DNA of 64,000 bases from an uncultured Clostridia bacterium (lineage in GTDB: Bacteria > Bacillota > Clostridia > Christensenellales > CAG-314), in NCBI GenBank assembly GCA_947629985.1, contig CANRFV010000004.1, positions 26,308 to 90,307 of the forward strand. Direction: 5' to 3'. Shown in pieces: positions 30,809 to 55,889 of this stretch. The first letter of the stretch is position 1. Every line of letters begins with the position of its first letter. Made by a program: the position numbers and the translations under genes. A model generated the notes under the pieces. It made no database searches and had not been told where the DNA came from. It worked only from the letters and a program-made list of their open reading frames with translations.

Positions 30809-31086
30809 ATAAAGAGCGGCAAATAAGCCGTGGTTAGTACAGGGTTCGACCCACATAGCGGGGTGGAGTGGCGCGTACAGAGCGAACAGAGCGCCACATT
30901 GGCGCCGCACTTCCTTGTCAACCCCAACCGCAAACAATTTCGAAATACACAAAACCCGTGCTGCCGTCCTTGTCTGCGTCTCATGCCACCCAGGCGAATA
31001 TCCATTCGCACGGGGACTCGCTCTTCCCCAAAAGTTTTGTTACGCTCAACTTTTACAGGTTTTCGTATTCAATCTCCCGAACCCGC
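30809..31086 (-). ncRNA. Candidate structured RNA, copy B (same family as 27228-27538)
   Basis: 278 nt. 30915-31086 is 172/172 identical to 27367-27538. The remainder is diverged but with compensatory stem changes. The same 3' hairpin-plus-T tract is present on the minus strand. It lies directly upstream (minus sense) of the WYL-helicase operon. Confidence 0.4.
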
Positions 31087-31164
31087 CCGCGCTTGAATGG
31101 CAAGTAAAAGGAGCGGTATGTAACTTCGCTCGCCCTTCCATATTTTTTTTGGGGGGGGCAGTTA

Positions 31165-35405: not shown

Positions 35406-35413
35406 GTTAGTTT

Positions 35414-42458: not shown

Positions 42459-45400
42459 ATGACAATTGAAGAATTAATCAGCGATATAAATTCGCTAATA
42501 GGAAATCTGTCAAGTGATGTGGAAAACTATACAGGCATACACAATTTATTGGAAAACACACTACAGGATCTCACAGCTTTTAGGAGATGTTGCGACGAAG
42601 AAAACTATTGTGTAGACAAAAAGGTGCGTAAGTTGGTCGAAAGTCGGAATCCGAATTTGTCAAGTCCTCTTACCTATACGTGGGCGAAACATTTATTTAA
42701 TGCCGTATCGGCTATGACCGATAAAAATTCTCAAAAGCCAAAGAGAAGTCGCCGTTATATTAGCATAATAATTATCACAGGAATATTATTGTCCGCCCTA
42801 TTGGGATTAAGTATAGCGAGTTTTTTCCTATTGCCGAAAAATGAAAGGAACCTGTATAGTCTTTTTACGATGTTGGTTGGGATAGCGGACTTTATTTGCG
42901 GTATTAGCTTTTTCATCTATGAGTGTATAAGCGACAAAAACAAGCCGTTGGCTACTAATGGCGATAATGCCCCAAGTGAAAGGACGTATTCTAAGAGCCA
43001 AAGAAAATGTGCATACATTTGTGCTGTCGGGGCATTTGTTTTGTCTATGTTTGCATTGGTAATTATGTTGATTTTGGCCTTTAAGCCGTTTCAAATACCA
43101 TATGAAAAGGCGCAATCAATGTGGGCGTGGTCTTGTATATCAAGCATTTTGTCTCTAATTGTTGTCGCGTTTGGAGTATTTCAACTAAAACGCGGCACAT
43201 TGGTTCAAGTATTTGTGTTGGTGACAGTAGTAGTTTGTATCGGTTCAATTGTCTTTCAACATCTTTTCAAACCGGTTGCGGCAAGGAACGATATTGTTGA
43301 ATATATTGCCAACGAAGACGGCTCGGCATATCAGGCAGTAATTATACCGCAGGATGTTGAAACAGACTATGTTATAGCGGCGAATTACGACGGTAAACCT
43401 ATTACAAGTATCGGACGAAAAGACCCCGAAAAACCGTTGTATATCAAATCGTTAGATATCGGCGCCAACATTACAACAATAGGCGACGAGTCCTTTGCAC
43501 ACAGCCGCGGATTGAGGCATATTACATTGCCGCAAAACGTTACCGAAATTGGCGCAAGAGCATTTTATGACTGCGTTGACCTTGTCGATGTTACGGTAAA
43601 CTGTAATTTAACCAAAGTGGGCAACGAAGTATTTGACAAGTGCAACGCGCTTTCCACTGTTTGGTGGAATAGTAACGGTAATTCTGTCGGATTTGGAGAT
43701 ATATTCGTGTCGTGTGAAAGTATCCGAACCGTTATCTTGGGACATTCGATTAATTCAATCGCAACCAATATGTTCAATAATTGTAAATCTATCGAAGAAG
43801 TTGTACTGTATGAAAATATCAAATCGATAGGTACCGGAGCATTTGCAAATTGCGATAGTTTGCAATCGGTATTTTATCGCGGGAACGCAGATCAATGGCA
43901 GAACATAACAGTGGGTAGAGATTGCCAATCGTTGATGTCTGCACAGATTTATTATTATAGTCAACAAGAGCCGCAATTAAGTGATGACGGACTTTCGTAC
44001 AATGGTAATTATTGGCACTCAGACGATAGTGGTTTGCCTGTTGTGTGGAAATATACTCCGCCTACTTACACGGTTAAATTTTATGCAGATGGTAAACTTT
44101 GTAAAGAAGTAACTTATATTAAAAATGATACGCATATAGAAGAGCCTGCAGTGCCGGCGAAAAAAGGTTATACCGGCATATGGGAAAATTATACTCTAAA
44201 TAACAATGATATTGTCGTAAACGCTGTTTATACGGCCAAAACATATACGCTTAATTTGGACTACAACGGCGCGGACGGCGAAAATAGCAAAAAATCTATT
44301 ACAGCAACATACGATCAACCCGTAGTGGGGTTACCGACACCAACAAAAACAGGTTATGCATTTGATGGTTGGTATATTGGTGAACAAAAAATATCTTCTT
44401 CAACCAAGTGGCAAAACGATGCCGAAGAATCTTATACGCTTATCGCACATTATAAGACAATATACGTTGTCAGATTCTATGTCGGGGGTAAACATTATAA
44501 GGATATTAAATATTTGGAAGGACAAAGTACAATAGAAGAGCCTGCAGTACCTGTAAAAAAAGGCTATACAGGCGCATGGGAAAAATATACACTAAATAAC
44601 AGCAATATTACCGTGAACGCAGTTTATACGGCTAAAACCTACAAGTTGATTTTTGACTACAATGGTGCCACAGACAGCGTCGGATTGGATTCGAAAATAG
44701 TAACGTATGGTGAAATAGTTGGAGATTTGCCACAACCTACGGCAGGCCTTGCCAATATATTTGTTGGGTGGTATATCGGCGATGTTTGTATCAAATCTTC
44801 AACTGTTTGGACATACGATGAGCAAGATGTTTATACCGTACAGGCACATTATGAATGTTTGGATTTCTATGGCGGCTCAGGAACGGAACAAAATCCGTTT
44901 TTGATTGAATCGGTTGATGATTTCTTGAACATCAAGCTTTATCCGACAGTTTACTATGAGTTAATTGCGGATATAGACATGACCGGTATTGATTATACAG
45001 TAATCAACTCTTTTTCGGGAAATTTTGACGGCAAAGGTCATTGGATTAACAACCTTTCTTTATATTCAAATGCTGTCGAAACTAACAAAATCGGCATATT
45101 CGGGGTCAATAACGGTACGGTGCGTAATTTGAATTTGCGAAACTGTTCGTTTACATTATCTCCGCCGCATCACAACAATACCGTAACAAATTATTGTGGA
45201 ACAATTGCGGGCGTTAACAACGGAACGATTGAAAATTGTCATATTCTTGAATCCAAGGTTATTTCGAATTCCAGCGATGTTGCGGATAAATTTATGGCGC
45301 AATTCAACGAAGATCCGCGTGAAATTGTACGTGGATCGGCAAATTGGGCAAAGTGGATAACACAAGAGTTTGCTGCGCACATATCAAGTTGGCCCGCTGT

Positions 45401-45878
45401 TCCAATGGGTGTTTTTGCAGGCGGTATTGTCGGACAAAATTCGGGCAATGTGATTAAATGCTCGTTCGGCGGCAAGGTTGAGGCGAACATGTATAATATG
45501 CATTGCTATTGCAACGACAACAAGGCTGGAACTAGTGGTAAGGGACAAGCCAATTGTTTTGCAGGCGGGTTGGCTGGACAAAACGAAGGAACAATATCGC
45601 AATCGGAAGCAAATGCACAAGTGCGTGCTTGGATTGAATTAAACAATAACGGAAATGGCAATGGTTGGGTTGGCGATATGTACGTTTGGGGAGTTTGTTA
45701 TGCTTGCGGATTAGTGGGTAGCAATGTCAATGGAACGGTAGATGGTACGTCTAATTGTACACAACAAGCGGATTACAGAATATTTGCTCCGCAATCTGTT
45801 TTCGGTCCACAATACAATTGGTCCACAAAAGGGCATGCCGACAACCTTACTATTGGCACATCGGATACTTATAAATAA
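42459..45878 (+). CDS. Giant polytopic membrane protein: helical N-region, TM block, BspA-type LRRs, Listeria-Bacteroides-type repeats and GLUG-motif domain
   Basis: 1139 aa. LRR_5-like units (..ITTIGDESFAHSRGLRHITLPQNVTEIGARAFYDC..). Two pairs of Flg_new/InlB-B-like repeats (..YTVKFYADGK..GYTGIWENY..; ..TGYAFDGWYIG..). C-terminal GLUG-like repeats (FAGGIVGQNSGNV, FAGGLAGQNEGTI, ACGLVGSNVNGTV). Confidence 0.7.
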   Translation: MTIEELISDINSLIGNLSSDVENYTGIHNLLENTLQDLTAFRRCCDEENYCVDKKVRKLVESRNPNLSSPLTYTWAKHLFNAVSAMTDKNSQKPKRSRRYISIIIITGILLSALLGLSIASFFLLPKNERNLYSLFTMLVGIADFICGISFFIYECISDKNKPLATNGDNAPSERTYSKSQRKCAYICAVGAFVLSMFALVIMLILAFKPFQIPYEKAQSMWAWSCISSILSLIVVAFGVFQLKRGTLVQVFVLVTVVVCIGSIVFQHLFKPVAARNDIVEYIANEDGSAYQAVIIPQDVETDYVIAANYDGKPITSIGRKDPEKPLYIKSLDIGANITTIGDESFAHSRGLRHITLPQNVTEIGARAFYDCVDLVDVTVNCNLTKVGNEVFDKCNALSTVWWNSNGNSVGFGDIFVSCESIRTVILGHSINSIATNMFNNCKSIEEVVLYENIKSIGTGAFANCDSLQSVFYRGNADQWQNITVGRDCQSLMSAQIYYYSQQEPQLSDDGLSYNGNYWHSDDSGLPVVWKYTPPTYTVKFYADGKLCKEVTYIKNDTHIEEPAVPAKKGYTGIWENYTLNNNDIVVNAVYTAKTYTLNLDYNGADGENSKKSITATYDQPVVGLPTPTKTGYAFDGWYIGEQKISSSTKWQNDAEESYTLIAHYKTIYVVRFYVGGKHYKDIKYLEGQSTIEEPAVPVKKGYTGAWEKYTLNNSNITVNAVYTAKTYKLIFDYNGATDSVGLDSKIVTYGEIVGDLPQPTAGLANIFVGWYIGDVCIKSSTVWTYDEQDVYTVQAHYECLDFYGGSGTEQNPFLIESVDDFLNIKLYPTVYYELIADIDMTGIDYTVINSFSGNFDGKGHWINNLSLYSNAVETNKIGIFGVNNGTVRNLNLRNCSFTLSPPHHNNTVTNYCGTIAGVNNGTIENCHILESKVISNSSDVADKFMAQFNEDPREIVRGSANWAKWITQEFAAHISSWPAVPMGVFAGGIVGQNSGNVIKCSFGGKVEANMYNMHCYCNDNKAGTSGKGQANCFAGGLAGQNEGTISQSEANAQVRAWIELNNNGNGNGWVGDMYVWGVCYACGLVGSNVNGTVDGTSNCTQQADYRIFAPQSVFGPQYNWSTKGHADNLTIGTSDTYK

Positions 45879-45904
45879 TCTAAAATATATTAAGGAGTAA
45901 ACCA

Positions 45905-46606
45905 ATGACAATCGACACACAAGCAATCAAAAATTTATTACAGCGCGAAGCACCGGAAAGCGACAGCGACGAGCAGTTGCTTTGTAGTGCCGACGGCAAA
46001 TTGAACGAGATTTTGCAACAGGCAACCGAAGAAGACTCGGCAGCGGTGGAGTCTATACGCGCATACGCCGAGTCCAACGAAACAAACAAGCGCAAATTGC
46101 TTGCTTTTTGCGCCAATTTCCAAGATCCAACCGTGCGCGGGCAACAGGCGGTTTGCGGCGGGGCGCAAATTCAATTACATGCTATGTTGGAAGATAGCGA
46201 ATTGTACCAATTGCAACAATTTGTCAAGAAACATCAATATGATATTTCTTTCCCGTCTACCGTGTACGAAATGATGGATCAACGCAATATGACCGCCCCG
46301 CAAGTGTATAGCAAAGCTATGATGAGTCGGCAAGACTTTGCGCGCGCAACCGACCCGCGTGGCAAAAATGTAACGCGCAGAGTGGTTTGGCAAATCATTA
46401 TCGGTTTGCACTGTACAATCGATGAGGCAGAAAGCGTTTTGTTTTCTGCGGGATATACAATGCACAAAACTCGTCTTGATTTGATAATGGAGTACTTTGT
46501 CAAACACAAAAACTACGATATGTATGCTATAAATGACGCCTTACAGAGTTGTAACGAAAAAATGTATCTGTTATACAGACAGGTAAGAGACGATGACGTC
46601 GGCTAA
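45905..46606 (+). CDS. Hypothetical protein with degenerate HTH-like C-terminal half
   Basis: 233 aa. ..MTAPQVYSKAMMSRQDFARATDPRGKNVTRRVVWQIIIGLHCTIDEAESVLFSAGYTM.. resembles a divergent XRE-type HTH module common in Clostridia. Last gene before the terminator. Confidence 0.5.
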   Translation: MTIDTQAIKNLLQREAPESDSDEQLLCSADGKLNEILQQATEEDSAAVESIRAYAESNETNKRKLLAFCANFQDPTVRGQQAVCGGAQIQLHAMLEDSELYQLQQFVKKHQYDISFPSTVYEMMDQRNMTAPQVYSKAMMSRQDFARATDPRGKNVTRRVVWQIIIGLHCTIDEAESVLFSAGYTMHKTRLDLIMEYFVKHKNYDMYAINDALQSCNEKMYLLYRQVRDDDVG

Positions 46607-46668
46607 GTACCGTACTAAAAATTAAAAACGCAAGTATCTCGCGCAAAAAATCGAATATTAAAAATTAT

Positions 46669-46696
46669 GGCGAAGCAATTTGGCTTCGCCTTTTTT
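46669..46696 (+). terminator. Rho-independent terminator ending the 34152-46606 operon
   Basis: GGCGAAGC-aatttg-GCTTCGCC followed by TTTTTT. Confidence 0.8.
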
Positions 46697-46781
46697 GTAA
46701 CGAAAATATTGACGCGGCGAGCACCATGCGTGTGCTAAAATACAGACAAAATCAAACGTCAAACGTTGGGGAGGGGCAAGT

Positions 46782-47162
46782 ATGAAAAAAACGAATAAAA
46801 CCAATATTGAAAAGCACGAGGACCTGCTTGATGTTCTGTTGGACGAGAACAACCGCGATCCGATCACGCTGATGGACGACAACGGCAAGACCATAGAGTT
46901 TGAGCAAGTTTGCGTTATTCCTTACGCTGTTGAAGGCAAGCAGCGCAAGTTGTACGTTGTACTAAAGCCAATCGATCACATTGACGGCGTTGCCGATGAC
47001 GAGGCAATAGTATTTCGCGCAGAAACCGATAACCGAGGAAATACTTTTTTGGCGCTTGAAGATAATGAGTCCGTTGCCATCGACGTGTTCAACCAATATT
47101 ACGATCTGCTCGAAGCGGAACAAAAAGCCAAACGACAAGGCAAAGGAGGGAAAAATGACTAA
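46782..47162 (+). CDS. DUF1292-family small acidic protein
   Basis: 126 aa. ..DPITLMDDNGKTIEFEQVCVIPYAVEGKQRKLYVVLKPID..DEAIVFRAE..FLALEDNESVAIDVFNQYYDLLE.. fits the DUF1292/UPF0473 pattern. Confidence 0.65.
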   Translation: MKKTNKTNIEKHEDLLDVLLDENNRDPITLMDDNGKTIEFEQVCVIPYAVEGKQRKLYVVLKPIDHIDGVADDEAIVFRAETDNRGNTFLALEDNESVAIDVFNQYYDLLEAEQKAKRQGKGGKND

Positions 47163-47730
47163 CAAAAAAGAACAATATTCGCCGCAATATGCGCTCAGCC
47201 GCAACACGGTAAATATTTTTGGCCCTATCGATGACGATATGGCGCAATCCGTCATCTCACAATTGCAATATCTCGACGACAACGGGGCAGAAGAAATTAC
47301 ATTGCAAATATGCAGTCCGGGCGGAAGCGTCAGCGCAGGGTTGGCAATTTACGATACGGTTAACTATATCAAGGCCCGTGTTGTTACAGTCGGCGTCGGA
47401 ATGTGCGCGTCGATGGGGGCGTTTTTGTTGTCGGCAGGCAGCAAGGGTTATCGCAAGGCCACGCAAAATTGCGAAATACTCATTCACCAACCGTTGGGCG
47501 AAGCACAAGGTCAGGCAAGCGATATAATCATTGCCGCCGAGCATATCAAGCGCACGCGTGAGCGTATCAACAGTATTTTGGCGGCAAACACAAACAAATC
47601 TATCGAAGCCATAGCAATAGATACCGATCGCGACAAAATAATGACCGCCCGTGAAGCAATGCAGTACGGGCTTATCGATGAAGTAATACCAAGTATCAAC
47701 AAAGCCAAAGGAGAAGAAAATGCCGCTTAA
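47155..47730 (+). CDS. clpP: ATP-dependent Clp protease proteolytic subunit
   Basis: Start set to ATG 47155 after AAGGAGGG. ..ICSPGGSVSAGLAIYDTVNYI..VGMCASMGAFLLSAG..ILIHQPLG..GQASDI.. contains the catalytic Ser (ASMGA), His (IHQP) and later Asp context. Confidence 0.9.
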   Translation: MTNKKEQYSPQYALSRNTVNIFGPIDDDMAQSVISQLQYLDDNGAEEITLQICSPGGSVSAGLAIYDTVNYIKARVVTVGVGMCASMGAFLLSAGSKGYRKATQNCEILIHQPLGEAQGQASDIIIAAEHIKRTRERINSILAANTNKSIEAIAIDTDRDKIMTAREAMQYGLIDEVIPSINKAKGEENAA

Positions 47731-49300
47731 TTTACAAGAAGAACACATACTTATCGACTATTTCAAAACGTGCATTGCGGTAGGCGACCGTGTGGATTAC
47801 AACACAATTTTTGATTTGTTAATGCGCATACATAACGTCGAAACGTCTCGCGCAATACAATTAAAAGAAAAGTGCGCTTTTGCGGAGTTAAACGAACTTA
47901 CGGATATGCAATCGTGCAATCTTTACACGCGCACTTGCGATTTTTTGCAAATGCAGCAAAAGCGAAACCCCTTATCCAAGGAGCAACAGCAGATTGTCTC
48001 AATCAAAATCAGCGCCGTAAAGCAACTTTCCGCGCAGGGATTGTGTGCGGACGCGTATACAACCGAAATACAATTTTGGCACAACCTGGAAACGGCTGCA
48101 AACAACGGCAGCGTGGACGCCTTGCGTATCGGCGGTTTGATGATGGCAGAAAAACTTTTGTCGCACAACGGCGATGGGCTCGATTGGCTCAACAAAGCGG
48201 GGTCTTGGCTGGATTACACTTCGCTTATGTATCTTAGCAACATCGTTATGCCCAACAAGCCTATTAAATACGACATCAATTCTACACTCGGAGCCGCTTG
48301 CGATTATTATGGATATCCTTACCCAAAGAAATTGTCGCGTGAACGCACGCATAACATTACCGCTCACAACGCTTTTTTGTTGACGTCTGCGGTGGATATG
48401 AACAAATTGTCGACGGACAAAATTCACCCACTCTACCACAAGTTGATTTATTCTCCCGTATTATCGGAAAGCGACAAGGACAGACTGCTTTTGCGCGGCG
48501 AGTATTCCGAAAGCGAACTCTCGTTGTTGCCCATAGATATTCATTACGGGGCGAGTATGTGCTTTGATAATTGCGGACGCAAATTCCCACGCAAGGCAGA
48601 TCTCAACCTGCTTGAAGACGCCTACGCAAAGCAAGGACAAACCACATTGTTTATCAATTGCGACGACGCCGATTCGACTGACAAATTGGTAGACCGCATA
48701 GTAAATGCACATATCGGCAGCAATTGCACGCATGTTGCAACAATCGACGCGGCAGACCTGCAATCGGTAGATTTCGATCGATCATCGCAAAACGTTTTTG
48801 TTCGCAATCTCGTCAACGGTGTGCCCAACGCGCTTTTGTTGCGTATAGCGGGACGCGTTTCGACAAACATATTGCAACAAATAAACGAATTTTTTACCGA
48901 CAAACAACACTACAAACTTTCAAGACCCAATGTGGTATTGGATCTGTCCGATGTGCCGGTTTATTGTTTGTGCGATGCGCAAAACGCCCAATATTTTTCG
49001 GACAAGACGTTTGTAGACATTGCACCTATGACCGCGGACGAAAAGATCGAATACATAAGGGACATCGAAGTTCGCATCGACGAACGAGTAACGGGCAAAC
49101 AACAACCGTATCGGTTGACCGATGAAATGTGTCAATGGTTGTGCCAATATCCGCTCAAAAGGGTCGAGAGAGTAATGCGCGAATTGTTTGGCGACAAGCG
49201 GGACGAAAACTTTTCGTTTGAACAACTCAAATCAGTTTTTGTAAAGCACAACAAAAGTATAAAGCAAAACAGCTTCGGCTTTGGAGGACACACGGTATGA
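47720..49300 (+). CDS. Hypothetical 526-aa protein (possible Sel1/TPR-like middle, degenerate AAA-like C-terminal part without Walker A)
   Basis: Coupled to clpP (11-nt overlap) and to the next gene (ATGA). ..AANNGSVDALRIGGLMMAEKLL.. is Sel1-like. I saw no catalytic motif. Confidence 0.5.
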   Translation: MPLNLQEEHILIDYFKTCIAVGDRVDYNTIFDLLMRIHNVETSRAIQLKEKCAFAELNELTDMQSCNLYTRTCDFLQMQQKRNPLSKEQQQIVSIKISAVKQLSAQGLCADAYTTEIQFWHNLETAANNGSVDALRIGGLMMAEKLLSHNGDGLDWLNKAGSWLDYTSLMYLSNIVMPNKPIKYDINSTLGAACDYYGYPYPKKLSRERTHNITAHNAFLLTSAVDMNKLSTDKIHPLYHKLIYSPVLSESDKDRLLLRGEYSESELSLLPIDIHYGASMCFDNCGRKFPRKADLNLLEDAYAKQGQTTLFINCDDADSTDKLVDRIVNAHIGSNCTHVATIDAADLQSVDFDRSSQNVFVRNLVNGVPNALLLRIAGRVSTNILQQINEFFTDKQHYKLSRPNVVLDLSDVPVYCLCDAQNAQYFSDKTFVDIAPMTADEKIEYIRDIEVRIDERVTGKQQPYRLTDEMCQWLCQYPLKRVERVMRELFGDKRDENFSFEQLKSVFVKHNKSIKQNSFGFGGHTV

Positions 49301-50994
49301 TTTTCGGAAAAGAATTGCTTTCGGGATACGAAAACACGCGATTGCTGCGATACGCCGACTTGGAACAAAGCGGCTTAGACCTGATTTCGTTTGATGAGTT
49401 GCCGCAGAAAGACCGAATCGGGTTTATCAAAGCGTGTTTTTACGGCAAAGACGGCAAACTCAAATTGCTGTGTAGCAAGCCGGACTCTCACGCGCTATTG
49501 ATCGGCGCAACGGGTATGGGCAAAACAACCGGCGGACTTATACCCAATATATGCGCATTCGCCAACTTAAAAGATCCGCCTTCAATGATAATAACCGACC
49601 CCAAGGGCGAATTGCAGCAGCGTTACGACAGTTACTTAAAGGCACACAATTACAAAACCGTTACGTTGAGTTTCAGAGATCCCATTCACTCGGAAAAATT
49701 CAACGTTATCGGGCACATATACGATTTGTATATCAAGGCATACCAAGTCGAAAATGAAGTTGAAGTGGTGGAAACGGACAAGGGACCGCGCAACAAATTC
49801 GACGGTATAATATTCGACAGTCAATCGGCGTTGGATTTTGCAGTGGAACAAAAAATGCAAATACTCAAGGAAGACGCTTACAATGCGGTTGATGAGTTGG
49901 CGACGAAGGTTGTACCTATGGAATTGTCGAAAGACGTGTATTGGCCCTTGTCGGCGCAGGCTCTGTTAAAGGGTATTGTAAACGGTATGCTCGAAGATAT
50001 TTATGATTACGGAGATCGTCCGCCAATTACTCGAGAAACCTTTAATATGAATACCGTTATACAAATCCTTACCGCCATTGATTGCGACGATTCCAGAGTG
50101 GACGATAAAGGCTTTTTCAAAACTCGTCCGGATAACTCTCGCGCAATGTCGTTTGCGAAATATTCTATGTTGAACAACTCTCCCGTAACGCGCCGATGCG
50201 TGATGGGTGAATTGGACAGCGGTCTAACCCCATATAAATCCAGCGTAATACGAATGCTTACGTGCGCAAGCAGTTTTGACTTTTCCGAATTGGTGGAAGG
50301 CGATCGGCCGATAGCGTTGTTCGTCAACTTCAAAGACGAGATAAAGACGCAATATATGGTTATCAGCCAATTTTTGCAAACGTGTTACACCTATCTGATA
50401 CAGTATGCAAACGATCGTCCCGATGGCAAATTGGCAAAGCCGATATATTTTATGCTCGACGAATTCGGCAATATGCCGGCTTTTCAAAGTTTCGATTGCG
50501 CCATATCCGCTTGTCGGTCAAGGAATATCTTTTTTATGATTGTGTTGCAAAGTTATGCACAACTTGATAACGTGTACGGACCGAAGGTGGCGGAAATTGT
50601 GCGCGACAACGTTAATACGCATCTGTTTTTGGGTAGCAACAACCCGGAAACATTGGAAAAATTCAGCCGCGAGTGCGGCGAATTTGCGCAGATTTCTCCG
50701 CAAAGCGTGTTGCAGGGCAATTCCGACAAAATCGACGCATTGCTGATAGAACAAAATGTCCCGTGCGTTCCCAAGAGTAGGCTGGCAGTGCTTGGCGAAG
50801 GAGAATGTGTTGTTACCGAGGCAAATTGCGGTTATGTTCTCCTGTCTCACATCGAACGGTCCTACAAATGCAAAGAATTTGAATGCAAAGAACTTTTCGA
50901 TCAAAAAAACTACGTGTCGTCAATTAACCCGTTTGACGCCAAATATGTGTATCGTGCCGCCACGCAGACAAAGCCGCCGCGCAAAATGTGGTAA
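49297..50994 (+). CDS. VirD4/TraG-family (type IV coupling protein-like) ATPase lacking an N-terminal membrane anchor
   Basis: ..HALLIGATGMGKTTGGLIPN.. (Walker A), ..PIYFMLDEFGNMPAF.. (Walker B context typical of TraG/VirD4), ..NTHLFLGSNNPETLEKFSRECG... The first 70 aa have no hydrophobic segment. Confidence 0.7.
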   Translation: MIFGKELLSGYENTRLLRYADLEQSGLDLISFDELPQKDRIGFIKACFYGKDGKLKLLCSKPDSHALLIGATGMGKTTGGLIPNICAFANLKDPPSMIITDPKGELQQRYDSYLKAHNYKTVTLSFRDPIHSEKFNVIGHIYDLYIKAYQVENEVEVVETDKGPRNKFDGIIFDSQSALDFAVEQKMQILKEDAYNAVDELATKVVPMELSKDVYWPLSAQALLKGIVNGMLEDIYDYGDRPPITRETFNMNTVIQILTAIDCDDSRVDDKGFFKTRPDNSRAMSFAKYSMLNNSPVTRRCVMGELDSGLTPYKSSVIRMLTCASSFDFSELVEGDRPIALFVNFKDEIKTQYMVISQFLQTCYTYLIQYANDRPDGKLAKPIYFMLDEFGNMPAFQSFDCAISACRSRNIFFMIVLQSYAQLDNVYGPKVAEIVRDNVNTHLFLGSNNPETLEKFSRECGEFAQISPQSVLQGNSDKIDALLIEQNVPCVPKSRLAVLGEGECVVTEANCGYVLLSHIERSYKCKEFECKELFDQKNYVSSINPFDAKYVYRAATQTKPPRKMW

Positions 50995-51200
50995 TAGGAT
51001 AACCGAATTAAGAACGATCGCGGATTCGACGCGTCGGACTTTAATCGTTTACAATCGAATTAAAAAAAACAGACGCGTCAAGCGATTTTTGCGTGCCGCA
51101 CGCCCAGCCCGAGTTTCCGTTGATACAAGGCATTTCGGGCATTTAACGTCAATTATTTGCGGCGTTGCAAATTCGACAAAATACAAATAAGGAGAAAAAA

Positions 51201-52460
51201 ATGGTAAATAAAGAAGAAATGAATTTATCGGACGAATTGTTGAAACGTAAAACGTTTTCTATACCGTCCGTACAAAAGGAATTGGGCATCGGATACAAAG
51301 AATTGCGTAACTGCGTAAGAGAATTGGAAAAAAACGGGCAGGCAACATTGTCGGATGACGGGTTGAATTATATAGTCGATAATTCTCGCCTTGTTGCGCA
51401 GCAATTGAATCAAGACGCCAAGTCGTCCGCTAAGCGCCCGTCGCAGTTTATACAGCCGTATGGCAAATCGGAAAAGGACGACGATGATGAGAAATCTCCG
51501 TTTGCTGAAATGATTGCCCGCCGCCGTCGTGAACTTATGGAAAGATTCGCCGAATTGAATGATGATGACGACGATGACGATGATGAAGAAGACGAAGAAG
51601 ATGAAGAAGACGATGACGACGATGATGAAGATGACGACGTCGCCGGTGCGCGCAAGGAAATTATGCGTCGCCGCCGCGAACAATATGAGCGTCTTGTTCG
51701 GCTTGAAAAAGAAACCCCAAATGATGACGAAGATGACTACAACAAGTTAACAATAAAAGGATTAGAGGAACTCCAACGTGAACTTGCAGAACATCTTGCC
51801 CATTTTAACAACGTAAATAATGGTGCGAATGACGATAAAGACGACGCGGAAGACAGTGATAAAAAAGCGTATGAGTTGTTGAAATCCGTCAGCGATCATT
51901 TGGACGAATACATTTCCGAAGCAAACGATTGCAAATTGATAGACGGAATAGACTATACCGACGACGTGGAGTATGCAAAAAAAATAACTAACAGGTTGGG
52001 AGACTTAGGATATAAAGTTAAACTTAAAGCCATTCAATACGGTAAAGCAACCACAAGATACGTTTTTGATTATCCCGTGCAAAATCAGGACATCAGGGCT
52101 GCGCATCTTCTTGTCGGCGTTATTAAGAGAGCAATATCCGCAAACGATGTAAAGATCGTGGCTCCGTGGTGCGGCGATACGGTTTGTATTACCGCATATC
52201 ACGCCGAAAAGTTTGACCCTTTGAGTAAATCGGCGCTGAAATATTGGATTTTGCGCAACGGCGGGCGCGCGTCGATTGCGTCTATACATAGGGGATTGGG
52301 CATAGAGTTTAACCGTGCTGGCGCAATAATGGAGCATCTTCAAAAAATCGGTTGTGTTGATCAATTATCTCCAAGTGATAACGTTTCCCAACCGCTAAGC
52401 GTAAAGATATCTTTACGAGAAATCGACATATTGTTTCCCAAATCACTCGGATGGGAATAA
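51201..52460 (+). CDS. FtsK-like protein with winged-helix (gamma-like) and alpha-like domains but no motor domain; long poly-Asp/Glu tract
   Basis: ATG 51201 after AAGGAG. The N-terminal WH reads ..FSIPSVQKELGIGYKELRNCVRELEKNG... The acidic run is DDDDDDDEEDEEDEEDDDDDDEDDD. The FtsK-alpha-like block is ..VKLKAIQYGKATTRYVFDYP..VKIVAPWCGDTVCI... The C-terminal gamma-like block is ..RASIASIHRGLGIEFNRAGAIMEHLQKIGCV... There is no Walker A/B. Confidence 0.55.
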   Translation: MVNKEEMNLSDELLKRKTFSIPSVQKELGIGYKELRNCVRELEKNGQATLSDDGLNYIVDNSRLVAQQLNQDAKSSAKRPSQFIQPYGKSEKDDDDEKSPFAEMIARRRRELMERFAELNDDDDDDDDEEDEEDEEDDDDDDEDDDVAGARKEIMRRRREQYERLVRLEKETPNDDEDDYNKLTIKGLEELQRELAEHLAHFNNVNNGANDDKDDAEDSDKKAYELLKSVSDHLDEYISEANDCKLIDGIDYTDDVEYAKKITNRLGDLGYKVKLKAIQYGKATTRYVFDYPVQNQDIRAAHLLVGVIKRAISANDVKIVAPWCGDTVCITAYHAEKFDPLSKSALKYWILRNGGRASIASIHRGLGIEFNRAGAIMEHLQKIGCVDQLSPSDNVSQPLSVKISLREIDILFPKSLGWE

Positions 52461-52751
52461 ATGCCGATGCAAACGGAACCACAAATCGGATTGACGACCA
52501 ATACACTATTAAAGGAAGAATTACCTGTTATGACAACGCAAACGCAACAAAGCAAATTTAACCAAAACACAACAACCGAAGCCGCACGCGACGCACAATT
52601 GATGCGTGGCGTTGCGGACGGGATAAGTAATAGACAGCGAGCAATCCGTTCTAAATTAAATTTTATCAATTATAGCAAAAACGTATCAGGATTGTATTCC
52701 CAAAAGATAGTCTGTCGTTACGTCAAAAAATATAGCAAAATCCGCCAATAG
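52461..52751 (+). CDS. Possible small protein (weak)
   Basis: 96-aa ORF starting immediately after the previous stop. Its 3' end overlaps the convergent XRE gene by 66 nt. Thr/Gln-rich, no recognisable family. Confidence 0.25.
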   Translation: MPMQTEPQIGLTTNTLLKEELPVMTTQTQQSKFNQNTTTEAARDAQLMRGVADGISNRQRAIRSKLNFINYSKNVSGLYSQKIVCRYVKKYSKIRQ

Positions 52752-52892
52752 TGATAGCGGCGGCTCTCGTTGATTTTTTTCATAGTGAAGGTACGTTACC
52801 GCATTTATATTAAACTTTTCGGCTATTTCTTTTTGCGTTAATCCGAACTCTTCTCGCAATTCTTTTAACCTTTGTCCCAAGATTATTTTCAT
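52686..52892 (-). CDS. XRE/Cro-CI-family HTH transcriptional regulator
   Basis: 68 aa. ..LGQRLKELREEFGLTQKEIAEKFNINAVTYLHYEKNQREPPLSLL..DYLLG.. is a canonical XRE HTH. RBS AGGGGAGG. Confidence 0.85.
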   Translation of the reverse strand: MKIILGQRLKELREEFGLTQKEIAEKFNINAVTYLHYEKNQREPPLSLLADFAIFFDVTTDYLLGIQS

Positions 52893-52911
52893 AGTTTTAT
52901 TGCCTCCCCTC

Positions 52912-52965
52912 TTGACATACTACCATTTTGGTAGTACAATATGTCCAGAACTACCGTTTTGGTAG
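52912..52965 (+). promoter_or_regulatory. Divergent-region promoter with two palindromic operator sites
   Basis: TTGACA (52912-52917), 17-nt spacer, TACAAT (52935-52940). CTACCATTTTGGTAG (52920-52934) fills the spacer, and a second copy CTACCGTTTTGGTAG lies at 52951-52965. Confidence 0.65.
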
Positions 52966-53036
52966 TTTGTGGCAAAAACAATGTTGTTATAAGAAAGGAA
53001 GAATAAACATTTAGCTTTATTTAAGGAGGTGAAGAT

Positions 53037-53216
53037 ATGAAGTGTTTTATTTGTGGCAAAGAAACCGATTGGGAAACAACAAACAACCAACCAATATGTC
53101 CCGATTGTAAAAATGAAAGAGGTTACGAGGTGTGTAATACACTGGGAAAAGTTATAGCCGACAGAACTTTCATTTGCGATCATATATGCAACGATTGCTG
53201 TTTGATAAACAAGTAA
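53037..53216 (+). CDS. 59-aa CxxC...CxxC zinc-ribbon protein (not in ORF track, under 60 aa)
   Basis: Own translation: MKCFICGKETDWETTNNQPICPDCKNERGYEVCNTLGKVIADRTFICDHICNDCCLINK. AAGGAGG 7 nt upstream. Divergent from the XRE gene and downstream of the operator-bearing promoter. Confidence 0.55.
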   Translation: MKCFICGKETDWETTNNQPICPDCKNERGYEVCNTLGKVIADRTFICDHICNDCCLINK

Positions 53217-53270
53217 GGCGATAATAATATTAAACCCATCAAAAAAATTTATTTTATAAAAGAAGAAATT

Positions 53271-54461
53271 ATGAGAAATACAATGAAAAAACACTTATTG
53301 TGGTTGCTATGTATCGTATTGTTGACAACAATAGTTGCTCTCGTGGCTTGCGATGGCGATGACGTTGAACCCGACACACAAGGTGTGGTATATACACTTT
53401 CCGATGACGGACAGGGCTACTGTGTGTCAGACGGCGACGAAGCAAGTGGCGACATTGAAATATTATCGAATTACAAAGGCTTGCCTGTCGTTGGTATAAA
53501 CGATGTGGTGTTTTCTGATAATAGTGCTTTAACGTCTGTTACCATTCCGAGTAGCGTTACACTAATAGGTGCATTTGCATTCAACGAATGCAACAATTTG
53601 AAAACAGTAAAATTTGAAAACGGCAGTAAGCTAAAAAGTATAGGAGCGTATGCTTTCAGCAAGTGTAGCAATCTGACAACGATCACAATTCCAAGTGAAG
53701 TTACAAGCATAGGAAACGGTTCTTTCGACAATTGTAGCAGTCTCACAACGATTAATGTACCAAATAGCGTTACGGACATAGGTAACGATTCTTTCTACAA
53801 TTGCAAAAATTTGCAAACGGTAGTATTAGAAAGAAACAGTAAACTGCAAAACATTGGCAACTCTGCGTTCAACCATTGCGACAGTCTTACAAACTTTAAG
53901 TTTCCAAGTAGCGTTACAAAAATAGGCGAGATGGCTTTTGGGAGTTGCAATTTGCAAACGGCAACATTTGGAAAAGACAGCAAGCTGGAAAGTTTAGGTC
54001 TTGGTGCCTTTTGGTATTGCAAAAATCTAACATCCGTCACCATTCCAAACAATATTAAAAGCATTGGGAAAAACGCTTTTTATGGTTGTGACAGTTTGAA
54101 GTACACCAAGTCCGATGGAGCTTCATACCTTGGTAACGAAGAGAATAATTATTTAGCATTAGTAAGACAAAGTACTTTTTCGTCATCTTGCACTATTGCA
54201 AATACAACAAAAATAATATGTTCCGGTGCATTCTCGGATTGTACGCGAATTACATCTATCACAATTCCTAGTAGCGTAACAAGCATAGGCAAGTGGGCTT
54301 TCTCGGGATGTACAGGGTTGAACAGTGTTGTATTTGAAAATCCCAATGGATGGAAGGCTGGCGATACAAACCTTACCTGTACAAACCCGTCTACAAACGC
54401 GAAAAATCTCGGAGATCTTTTTTACTATAATTACAGTGATTACGATTGGACGCGTTCCTAA
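53271..54461 (+). CDS. BspA-type leucine-rich-repeat surface lipoprotein
   Basis: Lipobox (ALVAC). About 11 consecutive ..SVT.IG..AF..C..L..I.IP.. LRR_5-like units. Confidence 0.8.
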   Translation: MRNTMKKHLLWLLCIVLLTTIVALVACDGDDVEPDTQGVVYTLSDDGQGYCVSDGDEASGDIEILSNYKGLPVVGINDVVFSDNSALTSVTIPSSVTLIGAFAFNECNNLKTVKFENGSKLKSIGAYAFSKCSNLTTITIPSEVTSIGNGSFDNCSSLTTINVPNSVTDIGNDSFYNCKNLQTVVLERNSKLQNIGNSAFNHCDSLTNFKFPSSVTKIGEMAFGSCNLQTATFGKDSKLESLGLGAFWYCKNLTSVTIPNNIKSIGKNAFYGCDSLKYTKSDGASYLGNEENNYLALVRQSTFSSSCTIANTTKIICSGAFSDCTRITSITIPSSVTSIGKWAFSGCTGLNSVVFENPNGWKAGDTNLTCTNPSTNAKNLGDLFYYNYSDYDWTRS

Positions 54462-54483
54462 GTTGATATATTACGAACAAACA

Positions 54484-54518
54484 AGAAAGGAACGGATTGC
54501 AAAATGCCGTTCCTTTCT
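54484..54518 (+). terminator. 12-bp perfect hairpin after the LRR lipoprotein gene
   Basis: AGAAAGGAACGG-attgcaaaatg-CCGTTCCTTTCT. Confidence 0.6.
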
Positions 54519-54665
54519 GTCTGCGCGTGAATTGTTTTTTCAGTAATTTTACCACATATTGTGTCGCTGCCTGTAATCTCACATTTTATACTTGGCGACA
54601 TGTTCTAATCAAAATCGCTATTCTCAAACATGTTTTGGCATTATATTCAAAGGAGTTGCTATAGG

Positions 54666-55223
54666 ATGAGTAAGAAAAACGGCGCTACAAAGGTAAAAAA
54701 TGACTGTAGAAATTGCCCAAATGTAAAAAAGAAGGTTATCAAATATATTGTTCCGAGCAAAATTAACGATACTGAAATAAAGAATCTACTTTTATATTTC
54801 CTTTATTTTGCGCCAAATATCGATAGCGTACATCATTCAAGTATACCGGATACAGAGAACCACGATGCGATATTTCATGAAATGACTGACAATGCAAAAA
54901 CACTATCGTTTTACGTAGAAATATCTTCGGTAAATAACAATTTGCAGAAAAGTCATTTGGCAAATAATTATGTTTGTTTGAAATGTGTGCGTGCCATATG
55001 TCAAAGAAAAGGATCGGACAAAACAGATTTAGACTGTTTCTTGAGACATATAAGAAATTCTATAGCTCATGGTAGAATTGTGTACTGTCATGAAAGCCAT
55101 AGACATTACATAATGTTTGAAGATGTAACCCCCAATGGAAACATATCCGCAAGAATTGTATGCAACAAATCTTGTCTATTGAATTGGAGAAGAATATTGG
55201 AAAAATATTCAACAAAAAGCTGA
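54666..55223 (+). CDS. Hypothetical protein with HEPN-like R-x4-H motif
   Basis: Start set to ATG 54666 after AAAGGAG. ..DCFLRHIRNSIAHGRIVY.. contains R-N-S-I-A-H, the Rx4H signature of many HEPN RNases. Last gene at the island edge. Confidence 0.4.
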   Translation: MSKKNGATKVKNDCRNCPNVKKKVIKYIVPSKINDTEIKNLLLYFLYFAPNIDSVHHSSIPDTENHDAIFHEMTDNAKTLSFYVEISSVNNNLQKSHLANNYVCLKCVRAICQRKGSDKTDLDCFLRHIRNSIAHGRIVYCHESHRHYIMFEDVTPNGNISARIVCNKSCLLNWRRILEKYSTKS

Positions 55224-55261
55224 TTTTACATATACGCAGACATTAGATAAATAGTCAAACA

Positions 55262-55412
55262 AAATACCCAGCCAAACCCCTGCGGGTTCGACGGGCGTTG
55301 TTCGGTGGTCGATACAGGGCTCGTCTCCCGCGCAGCGGGAGTAAGTGGAGCAACACATAGTGTTGCGGAACGCTACATAATTCGTCGTCCTGCACTCGCC
55401 CGCGCTTGAGCG
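55262..55412 (-). ncRNA. Candidate structured RNA, copy C (short, diverged member of the 27228/30809 family)
   Basis: Shares with copies A/B the 3' module (minus: ACGAGCCCTGTATCGACCACCG versus ACGAGCCGTGTACTAACCACGG), the GTGGAG box followed by a hairpin (GCAACAC-ata-GTGTTGC) and the 5' flank cgcccgcgcttga..ggcaagtaaa. It lacks the 172-nt block. Confidence 0.3.
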
Positions 55413-55426
55413 GCAAGTAAACAGGA

Positions 55427-55470
55427 GCAACAGAAAAAGAGCGTGCCTTGCGCACACTCTTTTCTGTTGC
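55427..55470 (-). terminator. Terminator of the tRNA operon
   Basis: Minus strand: GCAACAGAAAAGAGTGTGCGC-aagg-CACGCTCTTTTTCTGTTGC, a long imperfect hairpin rich in U at its 3' side, 25 nt after tRNA-Val. Confidence 0.65.
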
Positions 55471-55495
55471 GGCCAACAAACGCAGCCGCTCAATC

Positions 55496-55571
55496 TGGTG
55501 GGGAGTACAGGGCTCGAACCTGTGACCCCCTGCTTGTAAGGCAGATGCTCTCCCAACTGAGCTAACTCCCC
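55496..55571 (-). tRNA. tRNA-Val (anticodon UAC), CCA encoded
   Basis: Hand-folded: GGGGAGT/ACTCCCC acceptor, D arm GCTC..GAGC, anticodon loop CTTACAA, T arm ACAGG-TTCGAGC-CCTGT, 76 nt. Confidence 0.9.
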
Positions 55572-55573
55572 AT

Positions 55574-55648: not shown

Positions 55649-55653
55649 GATTT

Positions 55654-55819: not shown

Positions 55820-55889
55820 CAAAATTGACGATGTTTTTGCACAAAATGAATTGGCGCCCCGCGCAATGTGATTTTTCGCGCCGCAATTT

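Follow-up and report, generated by a model that had tools for sequence, protein, structure and literature searches.

What is the function of a gene block that encodes a ClpP protease, a relative of the coupling proteins of conjugation, and a relative of FtsK? Such a block lies in a 64,000-nucleotide stretch of DNA from an uncultured Clostridia bacterium (the window). A preliminary description, made from the sequence alone, took it for five translationally coupled genes that handle DNA in a non-canonical way, possibly together with an ESCRT-like operon upstream. We found that the block is one copy of a conserved, previously undescribed gut-bacterial gene cassette. We also found what the preliminary description had missed: the 526-amino-acid protein of the cassette is Lon-like, with an AAA+ module that is dead as an ATPase, and it ends in a tail that resembles the docking loop of ClpX. 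With middling confidence, we propose that the block encodes a self-contained cytoplasmic ClpP-coupled ring machine on a 24-kb integrase island, rather than a piece of a conjugation system or a phage, and that it is likely used in conflict or defence.

The cassette and its carriers

The five open reading frames (46782-47162, 47155-47730, 47720-49300, 49297-50994, and 51201-52460, all on the forward strand) were correctly delimited in the preliminary description. So were the overlaps of 8, 11, and 4 nt, but these couple genes 1-4 only: a 206-nt gap (50995-51200) separates the fourth gene from the fifth, which is not coupled. The second gene (clpP) starts with the ATG at 47155, with AAAGGAGGG 5' of the start. 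A terminator-like hairpin on the forward strand (46669..46697; 8-bp stem with 6 GC pairs, and a T-run) lies between the cassette and the upstream operon, and is the best terminator-like site within 45800-55500.

The first gene (46782..47162) encodes a DUF1292-like small protein of 126 amino acids. Its match to Pfam's DUF1292 (23.1 bits) is just under the cut-off of 24, and its homologue at another locus (L045) scores 30.8 bits. Homologues are found upstream of the cassette at L017, L018, L020, L021, L045, and L073. In three locus pairs, dN/dS is 0.04–0.20 for all cassette genes, including 0.17 for the DUF1292-like gene; all of them are under purifying selection. All of the cassette proteins are predicted to be soluble. 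PADLOC found no system that matches the cassette, just a weak match to mad8 (35.7 bits).

The cassette is rare, with 1 occurrence among 398 other genomes sampled evenly from the class. Its carriers differ. In the window and in genome G032 it is on an integrase island; at L015 there is no integrase, and the cassette is flanked by housekeeping genes only; and in G016 its neighbour is a prophage that has terminase, portal, and major head genes. The island in the window is 24.3 kb, and its putative ends are marked by an imperfect direct repeat of 34 nt (85%; repeat family D10), with copies at 31075..31108 and 55388..55421 (spacing 24,313 nt). The right copy adjoins a cluster of tRNAs (Val/Glu/Met, at 55496-55730), and a tyrosine integrase (32801-33712) is near the left copy. 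The window's cassette is also near HEPN and helicase-nuclease genes.

Some other loci have accessory genes with a proteolysis theme: Clp_N proteins (L045 and L055), or both DnaJ-Sel1 genes and a soluble double-AAA+/M41 protease (L043 and L050).

A dead Lon-like protein with a ClpX-like tail

The third gene (47720..49300, forward strand) encodes the 526-amino-acid protein, which did not match any family in Pfam, PHROG, NCBIfam, or PADLOC. Its AlphaFold2 model is confident (pLDDT 91.9, pTM 0.86), except that the C-terminal tail (residues 517-526) is below pLDDT 50, or disordered. The model has an N-terminal helical half (weakly Sel1-like), a LonA-type three-helix bundle with an AAA+ module, and a tail that reads F-G-F-G-G. 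The best Foldseek matches are Lon, ClpA, and ClpC. With VIA-align, residues 225-512 superpose on LONP1 (7ksm_A; Z = 14.5, 274 residues aligned, rmsd 4.2) and on E. coli LonA (6u5z; Z = 14.0), with roughly 275 residues superposed at about 8–12% sequence identity. Unlike LonA, the protein lacks both ATP-binding motifs and a Lon protease domain, and the protease comes from the separate clpP gene. A P-loop was found in none of 133 relatives, and Walker A and B are absent from all 133. As modelled, then, its AAA+ fold is LonA-type and incapable of binding ATP.

The family comprises 409 representative clusters, and its most conserved feature is the tail. G520 is invariant, F521 and G522 are each at least 90% conserved, and the pattern across the family is [F/Y/I/L]-G-F-G-G. 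The near-invariant G-F-G-G is similar to the docking loop of the host's ClpX (GLGFG). IGF or LGF loops of the ClpX type dock on ClpP. The combination of a dead Lon-like AAA+ module with a ClpX-like tail points to coupling with ClpP proteolysis, beyond the handling of DNA alone.

A dedicated ClpP, and its covariation with the tail

The second gene (47155..47730, forward strand) encodes a dedicated ClpP paralogue of 191 amino acids (Pfam CLP_protease, 211 bits). The intact Ser/His context noted in the preliminary description holds up: the triad Ser86/His111/Asp160 is invariant in 12 aligned sequences. This ClpP is 45% identical to the housekeeping ClpP (from the tig-clpP-clpX locus on contig C5) and is about 11 residues shorter at the N terminus. 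ClpP chains from the PDB align from its residues 13-22 (mostly 13-18), and their side of the alignment begins at chain residues 22-29 or later, except for two N-terminally truncated constructs. So the cassette's ClpP has its triad and lacks the N-terminal gate (axial-loop) segment.

A dedicated ClpP lies 5' of the 526-aa gene in 20 of 31 loci, and in all 20 of these an aromatic residue precedes the G-[FY]-G of the tail. In 9 of the 11 loci without a dedicated ClpP, this residue is I, L, or M (mostly a literal IGFGG); the other two, L073 and L076, have aromatic tails. All 9 of the checked genomes that have a ClpP-less, IGF-type cassette encode just one ClpP, the full-length housekeeping protein, while G462, whose cassette has a dedicated ClpP, encodes two. 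On the tree, the ClpP state changes 4 times and the tail class twice, which is too few for significance in a sign test; the covariation of tail and ClpP rests on few independent events.

We considered whether the 526-aa protein might instead hijack or modulate the host's ClpP. Its tail, which mimics the host's ClpX loop, would occupy the docking pockets of ClpP and redirect or block Clp proteolysis to the advantage of the mobile element. The role of the VirD4-like ATPase and the DNA-binding protein would be to regulate or localise the 526-aa protein, not to feed substrates. The dead AAA+ module and the IGF-type tails in genomes with housekeeping ClpP only are consistent with this idea, as is L054, where the 526-aa gene occurs without the VirD4-like gene. 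However, L054 is the single exception. In the other 30 of 31 loci, the next gene after the 526-aa gene encodes an intact ring ATPase, which is under purifying selection, and hijacking explains neither this nor the cassette's own gate-less ClpP in 20 loci. We think that hijacking is unlikely.

A soluble VirD4-type ATPase and a motorless FtsK-like protein

The fourth gene (49297..50994, forward strand) encodes a VirD4/TraG-type ATPase of 565 amino acids, with Pfam matches to T4SS-DNA_transf (135 bits), TraG-D_C (82 bits), and TrwB_AAD_bind (66 bits). Like the type IV coupling proteins (VirD4, TrwB, TraG, and the Firmicute pLS20/CD1115 type), it has the nucleotide-binding, all-alpha, and TraG-D_C regions. 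As the preliminary description had it, Walker A and B are present and the N-terminal transmembrane segment is not: G75-K76-T77-T78 and D388-E389 are invariant in 13 sequences, and there is no hydrophobic 19-mer (maximum 1.2), while by the same measure a canonical VirD4 on contig C1 of the same genome has two. This ATPase is the sole intact NTPase, the live motor, of the cassette. It differs from plasmid coupling proteins not just in being anchorless: it is at most about 30% identical to them, it scores 206 bits against NF045973's cut-off of 250, and it has no relaxase or type IV secretion neighbours. In contrast, a C. difficile plasmid has its CD1115-family gene (2,190 nt) beside the gene for a pLS20-type conjugation membrane protein.

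The fifth gene (51201..52460, forward strand) encodes a 419-amino-acid protein with the alpha and gamma domains of FtsK. It consists of an N-terminal winged helix, a long poly-Asp/Glu linker, an alpha-like domain (249-338), and a gamma winged helix (339-404). The model has a pLDDT of 75.4, or about 90 in the folded domains. The alpha-like domain scores just 12.7 bits against Pfam's FtsK_alpha, which is sub-threshold, but the fold is confirmed by structure (6t8b_B: Z = 11.9, 90 residues aligned, rmsd 2.1; in 2iut_A, residues 249-338 correspond to 330-419 of P. aeruginosa FtsK), and a homologue (P0165) bears a precomputed FtsK_alpha. The gamma domain matches 2ve8_G (Z = 10.0, 30% identity) and Pfam's FtsK_gamma (38.9 bits), once, at the C terminus. 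Of the two gamma-like winged helices that had been described, the N-terminal one is generic (IclR/ArsR-like). The beta (RecA-like) motor of FtsK/SpoIIIE is absent, as had been described, and so is the membrane domain; the N-terminal winged helix and the linker are extra. The absence of the motor fits with its being supplied by the VirD4-like gene. The FtsK-like protein lies 3' of the VirD4-like gene in 8 of the 17 loci whose downstream sequence was examined, so perhaps not every cassette recognises DNA.

Could the coupling-protein homologue and the FtsK-gamma protein instead help to mobilise the island, by bringing its DNA to a type IV secretion system that is encoded elsewhere in the cell? 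There are mobilisable plasmids that supply a coupling protein of their own. The ATPase has VirD4-family domains, the cassette is on an integrase island, and the same genome has a canonical cluster on C1, which encodes the two-TM VirD4 together with a VirB4-like AAA_10 protein; 8 further contigs of this genome encode relaxases. However, as the preliminary description had noted for the 24-kb element, no relaxase, VirB4, portal, or capsid families were found among the scanned ORFs of the island. Nor was a relaxase found beside any locus examined, and no cassette at these loci contains a gene for relaxase, VirB4, or capsid. According to PMC7431656, mutants of MobB, TrwB, and PcfC that lack the transmembrane domain are non-functional in transfer, which counts against a mobilisation role for an anchorless ATPase. 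Such a role also seems inconsistent with the stand-alone cassette at L015, and it does not account for the invariant partner, a dead Lon-like protein whose tail is of the ClpP type. We consider it even less probable than hijacking.

The upstream operon

The preliminary description had suggested that DNA is pumped into something other than a secretion channel or a capsid, in concert with the upstream Snf7/Vps4-like operon (for instance, to load vesicles). A motorless FtsK alpha/gamma protein does adjoin an ATPase of the FtsK/HerA superfamily type, and the two operons are adjacent and inherited together in the window's genome (G000), G032, and G007. But only these three related islands have both the cassette and the full operon, which was not found beside the cassette at the remaining loci examined. 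Because the three integrases are 84% identical, the islands are of one type and the co-occurrences are not independent. The Snf7 match is below Pfam's cut-off (23.5 vs. 27.3 bits), and the operon's AAA ATPase also matches PADLOC's IetA defence ATPase (118 bits). Given also the hairpin between the operons and a set of soluble proteins, we give this idea hardly any credence: pumping has no direct support and the link to the operon is unsupported, although the module is indeed non-canonical.

Outside those islands, only the last genes of the operon (for an LRR protein and a 233-amino-acid protein) recur beside the cassette. The 233-aa protein (45905..46606, forward strand; no family in Pfam) is a possible sixth component. 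Homologues are directly upstream of the cassette at L018, L019, L020, and L021, and are also found at L076 (47% identity) and L081 (36%); the matches at L075, L071, and L072 are weaker. Its look-alikes in the atlas are hypothetical proteins, a minority with an XRE-type HTH, which is a lead only.

A decayed ICE or prophage remnant, with a leftover coupling protein and prohead protease, is as improbable as the pumping idea: ClpP-like proteases and TraG-like ATPases are frequent in such elements, and the G016 cassette abuts a prophage, but the genes are under selection with invariant catalytic motifs, their order is repeated in 30 loci from diverged lineages, the ClpP scores as the cellular type (211 bits, and 83 bits vs. 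a cut-off of 120 for the head-maturation protease), and the 526-aa protein has no match in 50,697 phage records, 72,556 plasmid records, or a scan of IMG/VR.

A proposed ClpP-coupled ring machine

We return to our proposal of a ClpP-coupled machine. Like ClpXP, ClpAP, and ClpCP, the cassette has a ClpP-family peptidase whose gene adjoins that of an AAA+-fold partner with a [hydrophobic]-G-F motif similar to the docking loop of ClpX. Unlike in those systems, the partner is dead, the motif belongs to a tail at the C terminus instead of an internal loop, the ClpP has no gate segment, and the only NTPase predicted to be active has a VirD4-type RecA fold. We propose that, with its tail, the 526-aa protein docks on the dedicated ClpP where there is one and on the housekeeping ClpP elsewhere, and would thereby link ClpP to the VirD4-type ring. 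The ring, in place of an ordinary Clp ATPase, would supply ATP-driven translocation or unfolding. The ring would be tied to DNA by the FtsK alpha/gamma protein or, at other loci, by different winged-helix partners. Least certain is the last step: DNA-bound proteins may be the trigger of the proteolysis or its target, in conflict or defence between mobile elements.

Two analogies, and they are only analogies, come to mind. ATP-independent activators of the proteasome dock by C-terminal motifs, much as the flexible tail might. And the idea of a ring NTPase working with a protease, both encoded on a mobile island, has a parallel in ATPase-plus-protease defence pairs such as IetAS, although PADLOC detected no sequence relationship between the cassette proteins and such pairs (the IetA-like match is in the upstream operon).

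Overall, the cassette does not look like a conjugation or phage module that has broken down; it has the appearance of a new protease machine with a link to DNA, and it probably has a role in conflicts between mobile elements.

A cassette that encodes ClpP and a VirD4-like ATPase

The cassette comprises five genes on the + strand, which encode a DUF1292-like protein (46782-47162), ClpP (47155-47730, with an ATG start behind AAAGGAGGG), a 526-amino-acid protein (47720-49300), a VirD4-like ATPase (49297-50994), and a protein with FtsK alpha and gamma domains (51201-52460, with AAGGAG before its ATG). A longer alternative ORF for ClpP has a TTG start at 47056 and would overlap the preceding gene by 107 nt. 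The preliminary description had presented five translationally coupled genes. All five ORFs are present, with overlaps of 8, 11, and 4 nt, but the fifth ORF is set off by a gap of 206 nt, which leaves four translationally coupled genes, not five. A terminator scan found no strong terminator in this gap. The top terminator-like hairpin of the region (46669-46690, followed by a T-run) lies between the upstream operon and the cassette. A 96-amino-acid ORF (52461-52751) begins immediately behind the fifth gene's stop codon; it matches no family and has no counterpart in the related loci that we clustered, and it may not be a gene.

We compared the cassette proteins to Pfam, NCBIfam, PHROGs, and PADLOC. 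The DUF1292-like protein scores 23.1 bits against Pfam's DUF1292 (gathering score 24), and its homologue in locus L045 scores 30.8 bits. (A term search did not find DUF1292 in the main text of PMC8528326.) In PADLOC 2.0, the VirD4-like protein weakly matches mad8 (35.7 bits), and the other four proteins have no match. Between positions 26000 and 56500, Rfam found three tRNAs and nothing else. The sequencing runs that matched were of rabbit-gut DNA, with no RNA run among those listed.

We considered that the cassette might be a decayed remnant. In three pairs of loci, dN/dS was 0.04-0.20 for the genes encoding ClpP, the 526-amino-acid protein, the VirD4-like protein, the gamma-domain protein, and the DUF1292-like protein.

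A putative ATPase-dead Lon-like protein

The 526-amino-acid protein does not belong to any family in Pfam, NCBIfam, PHROGs, or PADLOC, and Pfam found no family in any of 14 members that we checked (14/14). An exhaustive profile search gave 409 representative clusters at E ≤ 0.001 and 236 at 1e-30, and almost all of the 150 matches listed have 510-561 amino acids. The AlphaFold model (pLDDT 91.9, pTM 0.86) is confident outside of the tail (residues 517-526). With this model, the top Foldseek hits were Lon, ClpA, and ClpC (E 5e-6). With VIA-align, residues 225-512 superpose on the 3-helix bundle and AAA+ module of LONP1 (7ksm_A, Z 14.5, 274 residues, rmsd 4.2) and on E. coli LonA (6u5z, Z 14.0). 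About 275 residues align to LonA or LONP1, and Z is ~12 for ClpA, ClpC, and HslU. Both tools thus indicate the alpha/beta plus lid fold of AAA+ proteins. The P-loop (Walker A, GxxGxGK[ST]) is found in 0/133 sequences of the family, and in the same alignment the columns equivalent to Walker B (hhhhDE) are not Asp-Glu. An AAA+ fold that lacks both Walker motifs makes this, as modelled, an ATPase-dead Lon-like protein.

In place of Lon's protease domain, the 526-amino-acid protein has a flexible tail, [F/Y/I/L]-G-F-G-G. This extreme C-terminus is the best-conserved feature of the family: in the alignment of 133 sequences, G520 never varies, and conservation of F521 and G522 is at least 90% each. 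The tail can be compared to the housekeeping ClpX of the same genome, which has GLGFG at the site of the loop that docks on ClpP. A complex prediction with three copies of ClpP and residues 300-526 scored 0.01 (mark 0.32) and gave no answer either way. A search for fused long forms, in itself weak evidence, found none.

The N-terminal half of the 526-amino-acid protein is helical, with weak likeness to Sel1 repeats (E 0.02-0.03). We had thought that it might be a fast-evolving head for target recognition. We dropped this idea because domain-wise divergence did not reveal a hypervariable N-terminus: identity is low throughout (0.20-0.33). A single-sequence tblastn search of phage and plasmid records found no match to the protein, nor did a search of IMG/VR contigs with two peptide patterns.

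The ClpP of the cassette

As first described, the ClpP of the cassette has an intact catalytic context: the Ser-His-Asp triad (S86, H111, D160) is invariant across 12 aligned sequences. The protein matches Pfam's CLP_protease at 211 bits and is 45% identical to the housekeeping ClpP from the tig-clpP-clpX locus of the same genome (on contig C5). It falls under the NCBIfam cut-offs for TIGR00493 (196 versus 308.6) and NF009205 (211 versus 228). We also considered whether it could be a phage head maturation protease. The match to NF045542 has 83 bits versus a cut-off of 120, and the scanned ORFs of the island include no portal or capsid gene. By its scores, the protein fits a cellular ClpP far better.

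The cassette ClpP is short at its N-terminus. Compared with the housekeeping ClpP, the window's copy is truncated by about 11 residues, and the first 10-12 residues are missing from this copy and from 6/10 other aligned copies. (The remaining four calls are longer and may start at upstream codons.) The Pfam match begins at position 12-14 of the profile, versus position 2 for the housekeeping type, and ClpP chains from the PDB align from residues 13-22 of the cassette ClpP, mostly 13-18. The N-terminal axial-loop segment, or gate, is not present in the window's copy or in most of the aligned copies. In ClpP, N-terminal deletions open the pore and weaken the coupling to ClpX and ClpA.

The C-terminal tail and the presence of ClpP

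We counted 31 loci with a full-length gene for the Lon-like protein, after setting aside one further locus with an internal stop, and we classified the tails by reading the C-terminal sequences directly. The VirD4-like gene comes directly after the Lon-like gene in 30/31 loci (the exception is L054). A dedicated ClpP is encoded upstream of the Lon-like gene in 20/31 loci, and in all 20 of these G-[FY]-G is preceded by an aromatic residue (FGFGG, YGFGG, FGYGG, or FGYMGG). Among the 11 loci without ClpP, nine have a tail with I, L, or M (IGFGG five times, LGFGG twice, and MGFGG and LGFKA once each) and two have an aromatic tail (L073 and L076).

A tree that we built without the tail columns has four changes of ClpP state and two changes of tail class, and each of the two groups with aliphatic tails is one starred clade. 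With so few independent changes, which are too few for statistics, the sequences are only suggestive of an association between tail class and the presence of ClpP.

One alternative is that the cassette is a hijacker of ClpP. All nine of the ClpP-less genomes that we checked have a single CLP_protease match, which starts at profile position 2, as in the housekeeping type (in G461 the match is partial, 2-85). A genome with the ClpP-bearing form, G462, has two CLP_protease matches.

The VirD4-like ATPase and the FtsK alpha/gamma protein

The VirD4-like protein has both the nucleotide-binding domain, with Walker A and B, and the all-alpha domain. It matches T4SS-DNA_transf (PF02534, 135 bits), TraG-D_C (PF12696, 82 bits), and TrwB_AAD_bind (PF10412, 66 bits). 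Across 13 loci, G75-K76-T77-T78, D388-E389, and many other residues are invariant. In NCBIfam, it scores 206 bits against NF045973 (VirD4-like, CD1115 family), under the cut-off of 250, and identity to plasmid coupling proteins is at most about 30%. On a C. difficile plasmid, an annotated CD1115-family gene spans 2,190 nt and adjoins a gene for a pLS20-type conjugation membrane protein.

The VirD4-like protein had been described as having no N-terminal transmembrane segment, and this held up in a simple Kyte-Doolittle hydropathy scan, rather than a dedicated predictor, in which no 19-residue window reached 1.6 (the maximum was 1.2). In contrast, the canonical VirD4 on contig C1 of the same genome has two hydrophobic segments. 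According to one paper, variants of MobB, TrwB, and PcfC without the transmembrane domain fail to support transfer (PMC7431656). We considered that the cassette might be a mobilisation helper. Neither the ORFs of the island nor the scanned neighbours of the related loci include a relaxase or VirB4-type T4SS partner for the VirD4-like gene.

The last protein of the cassette had been described as FtsK-like, with an alpha-like domain and two gamma-like winged helices and without the motor. The alpha fold, one gamma domain, and the missing motor are borne out, but the N-terminal domain (residues 5-77) is a generic winged helix, IclR/ArsR-like with Z ~8, and not a second gamma. In the model (pLDDT 75.4, with folded parts around 90), this domain is followed by a long acidic linker, which is partly disordered. 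Residues 249-338 then superpose on the alpha domain of FtsK (6t8b_B, Z 11.9, 90 residues, rmsd 2.1; also 2iut_A, Z 11.6, on residues 330-419 of P. aeruginosa FtsK), and residues 339-404 superpose on FtsK gamma (2ve8_G, Z 10.0, rmsd 1.8, 30% identity). FtsK_gamma (PF09397) scores 38.9 bits versus a cut-off of 30.6. FtsK_alpha (PF17854) is below threshold in the window's protein, at 12.7 bits; one homologue has a precomputed match. As for the beta (RecA-like) motor, we found no match to FtsK_SpoIIIE (PF01580) or another P-loop family, and there is no such domain in the model. In 8/17 loci whose downstream sequence we examined, the VirD4-like gene is followed by one that encodes a gamma domain.

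Mobile contexts of the cassette

The window lies within contig C4 of a 2.37 Mb assembly (157 contigs, 93% complete). Between about 26 and 56 kb of the window, the GC content drops from about 0.50 to 0.38-0.47. The proposed 24-kb element is indeed bracketed: an imperfect 34-nt direct repeat (85%) occurs at 31075-31108 and 55388-55421, with a spacing of 24,313 nt; a tyrosine integrase (32801-33712) lies inside; and a tRNA-Val/Glu/Met cluster (55496-55730) lies beside the right repeat. Just outside the tRNA cluster, at 55889-56254, are two families of tandem repeats, of 57 and 85 nt (95% and 89%; spacing ~210). At 53271-55223 are a BspA-type LRR protein (396 amino acids), behind the region's top promoter-like site (52912-52940, 11/12), and a HEPN protein (pEK499_p136-type) at the island's right end.

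To the left of the island, direct repeats of about 280-300 nt (27224-27538 and 30805-31086; 183 nt at 99%, 96 nt at 82%) lie on either side of an SF1-helicase/DUF2726-nuclease gene on the minus strand, which is split into overlapping ORFs (27678-29267 and 29240-30340). The right copy touches the 34-nt repeat at the island's left end, which suggests the tandem insertion of another element at this site, whose helicase-nuclease gene may be frameshifted.

We scanned the island's ORFs and found no relaxase, VirB4, portal, capsid, or terminase family. The earlier observation that these partners are missing from the element stands: in a search of the whole genome, all matches were on contigs other than C4. 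Relaxase (PF03432) is above the cut-off on eight other contigs, a VirB4-like AAA_10 match and a VirD4 with two transmembrane segments are on C1, and the sole HK97-type capsid match is on C48. The relaxase contigs (L031-L038) are mostly short; this could reflect an unusually high load of mobilisable elements or contamination of the bin (estimated at 3.3%).

The gene for the Lon-like protein is found in 8/36 genomes of the window's genus and in 1/398 other genomes that sample the class evenly. A sample of 301 genomes from the family of L045 had 13 full-length matches and four partial ones. The relatives are from uncultured Clostridia, Clostridiales, or Christensenellaceae of animal guts. In genome G032, the cassette is on the same integrase island, with an integrase that is 84% identical. 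In G014, it is a bare HTH-ClpP-526-VirD4-gamma insertion, with pullulanase and SAM-synthetase genes on either side. In G016, it adjoins a prophage (terminase, portal, and major head genes) and lies outside the head module.

The accessory neighbours of the cassette in other loci are proteolysis- or conflict-themed. They include HAD_SAK_2, ASCH, XRE regulators, and Clp_N proteins, one of which is fused to an FtsZ-like protein. This fusion (L045 14431-15792) has 453 amino acids, with tubulin/FtsZ GTPase, FtsZ_C, and Clp_N domains, and is encoded three genes downstream of a ClpP-less cassette. Just upstream of the cassette, L043 (4068-7697) and L050 (4302-7970) encode soluble proteins of 1209-1222 amino acids with AAA_2, AAA, and Peptidase_M41 domains (FtsH-like, double AAA+), and both loci encode a DnaJ-Sel1 protein downstream. 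In G016 (L016 238-1743, L062 10344-16184), genes for SSB and a polysaccharide deacetylase lie between the cassette and the prophage, whose genes encode a large terminase, portal, major head, and internal virion protein.

The upstream operon

The cassette had been proposed to be a DNA pump, possibly tied to the "ESCRT-like" operon upstream. Homologues of p203 and of the Snf7-like, Vps4-like, and trypsin-like proteins are found upstream of the cassette only in the window's genome, G032, and G007, and these co-occurrences represent one island type, so they are not independent. We did not find these genes beside the cassette in G014, G016, G010, G028, or other genera. With co-occurrence in three related islands only, and none at the other loci examined, this link is not supported.

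The upstream operon itself may be an ATPase-protease conflict system instead of an ESCRT membrane machine, judging from its protein matches. Within 34785-37627, the "Vps4-like" AAA ATPase matches PADLOC's defence ATPase IetA at 118.5 bits, nearly as well as it matches CdvC (136 bits, which is far under the CdvC cut-off), and its gene is followed by that of a trypsin-like protease. The Snf7 match is under the Pfam cut-off (23.5 versus 27.3). The operon also encodes a RuvB-like protein of 509 amino acids (40667-42196), with an N-terminal extension of about 190 residues that lacks a known family. This gene lies between two genes for giant BspA-type LRR proteins and is 74-78% conserved in G032 and G007. 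One of the giant genes contains near-identical repeats (39257-40051, 300 nt at 98%, spacing 495), and the other contains repeats at 44136-44668 (137 nt at 80%, spacing 396).

The last genes of the upstream operon do recur at the cassette: a BspA-type LRR or Flg_new giant protein and the 233-amino-acid protein (45905-46606, + strand) are found within the genus, in L045, and in other genera. In L045, a Flg_new giant protein and a 302-amino-acid protein precede the cassette; an LRR gene is beside it in L075 and L083; and the 233-amino-acid protein is beside it in L076 (47% identity), L081 (36%), and L075. Because it recurs beside the cassette, the 233-amino-acid protein may be part of the system.

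Proposed role of the cassette

To our knowledge, ClpP works with AAA+ unfoldases only, and we know of no VirD4-type coupling protein that acts other than at the base of a type IV secretion channel. Our data fit a cytoplasmic stack of the cassette's proteins. The dead Lon-like protein would dock via its tail on ClpP, either the dedicated or the housekeeping one; the VirD4-type ring would be the sole motor of the stack; and the FtsK alpha/gamma protein or other winged-helix partners would tie this ring to DNA. A full-text literature search, within the texts available to it, found no description of this gene combination.

Given the mobile and variable contexts of the cassette, a role in conflict or defence is plausible. 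A specific version, which we consider unlikely, is that the cassette encodes a decoy coupling protein armed with a protease. In this version, the FtsK alpha/gamma protein would guide the VirD4-type ring, which is free of the membrane, to DNA. The ring would capture proteins that are attached to DNA, such as relaxases bound to transferred strands or proteins at the ends of phage DNA, and would thread them via the dead-Lon collar into the gate-less ClpP. If so, conjugative elements or phages would face a new class of immunity, in which the pilot protein is destroyed and the DNA is spared, and ClpP would have its first natural partner other than an AAA+ ATPase.

More broadly, a conserved operon under purifying selection joins ClpP and a VirD4-type ATPase through a putative Lon-like, ATPase-dead adaptor, for which metagenomes contain 409 representative clusters. 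If the proposed coupling is correct, then it would widen the range of partners of ClpP and provide a natural model for how gate-less ClpP is regulated. It would also put the motor of a coupling protein to work outside of secretion, possibly in a new mobile-element conflict system of gut Clostridia.
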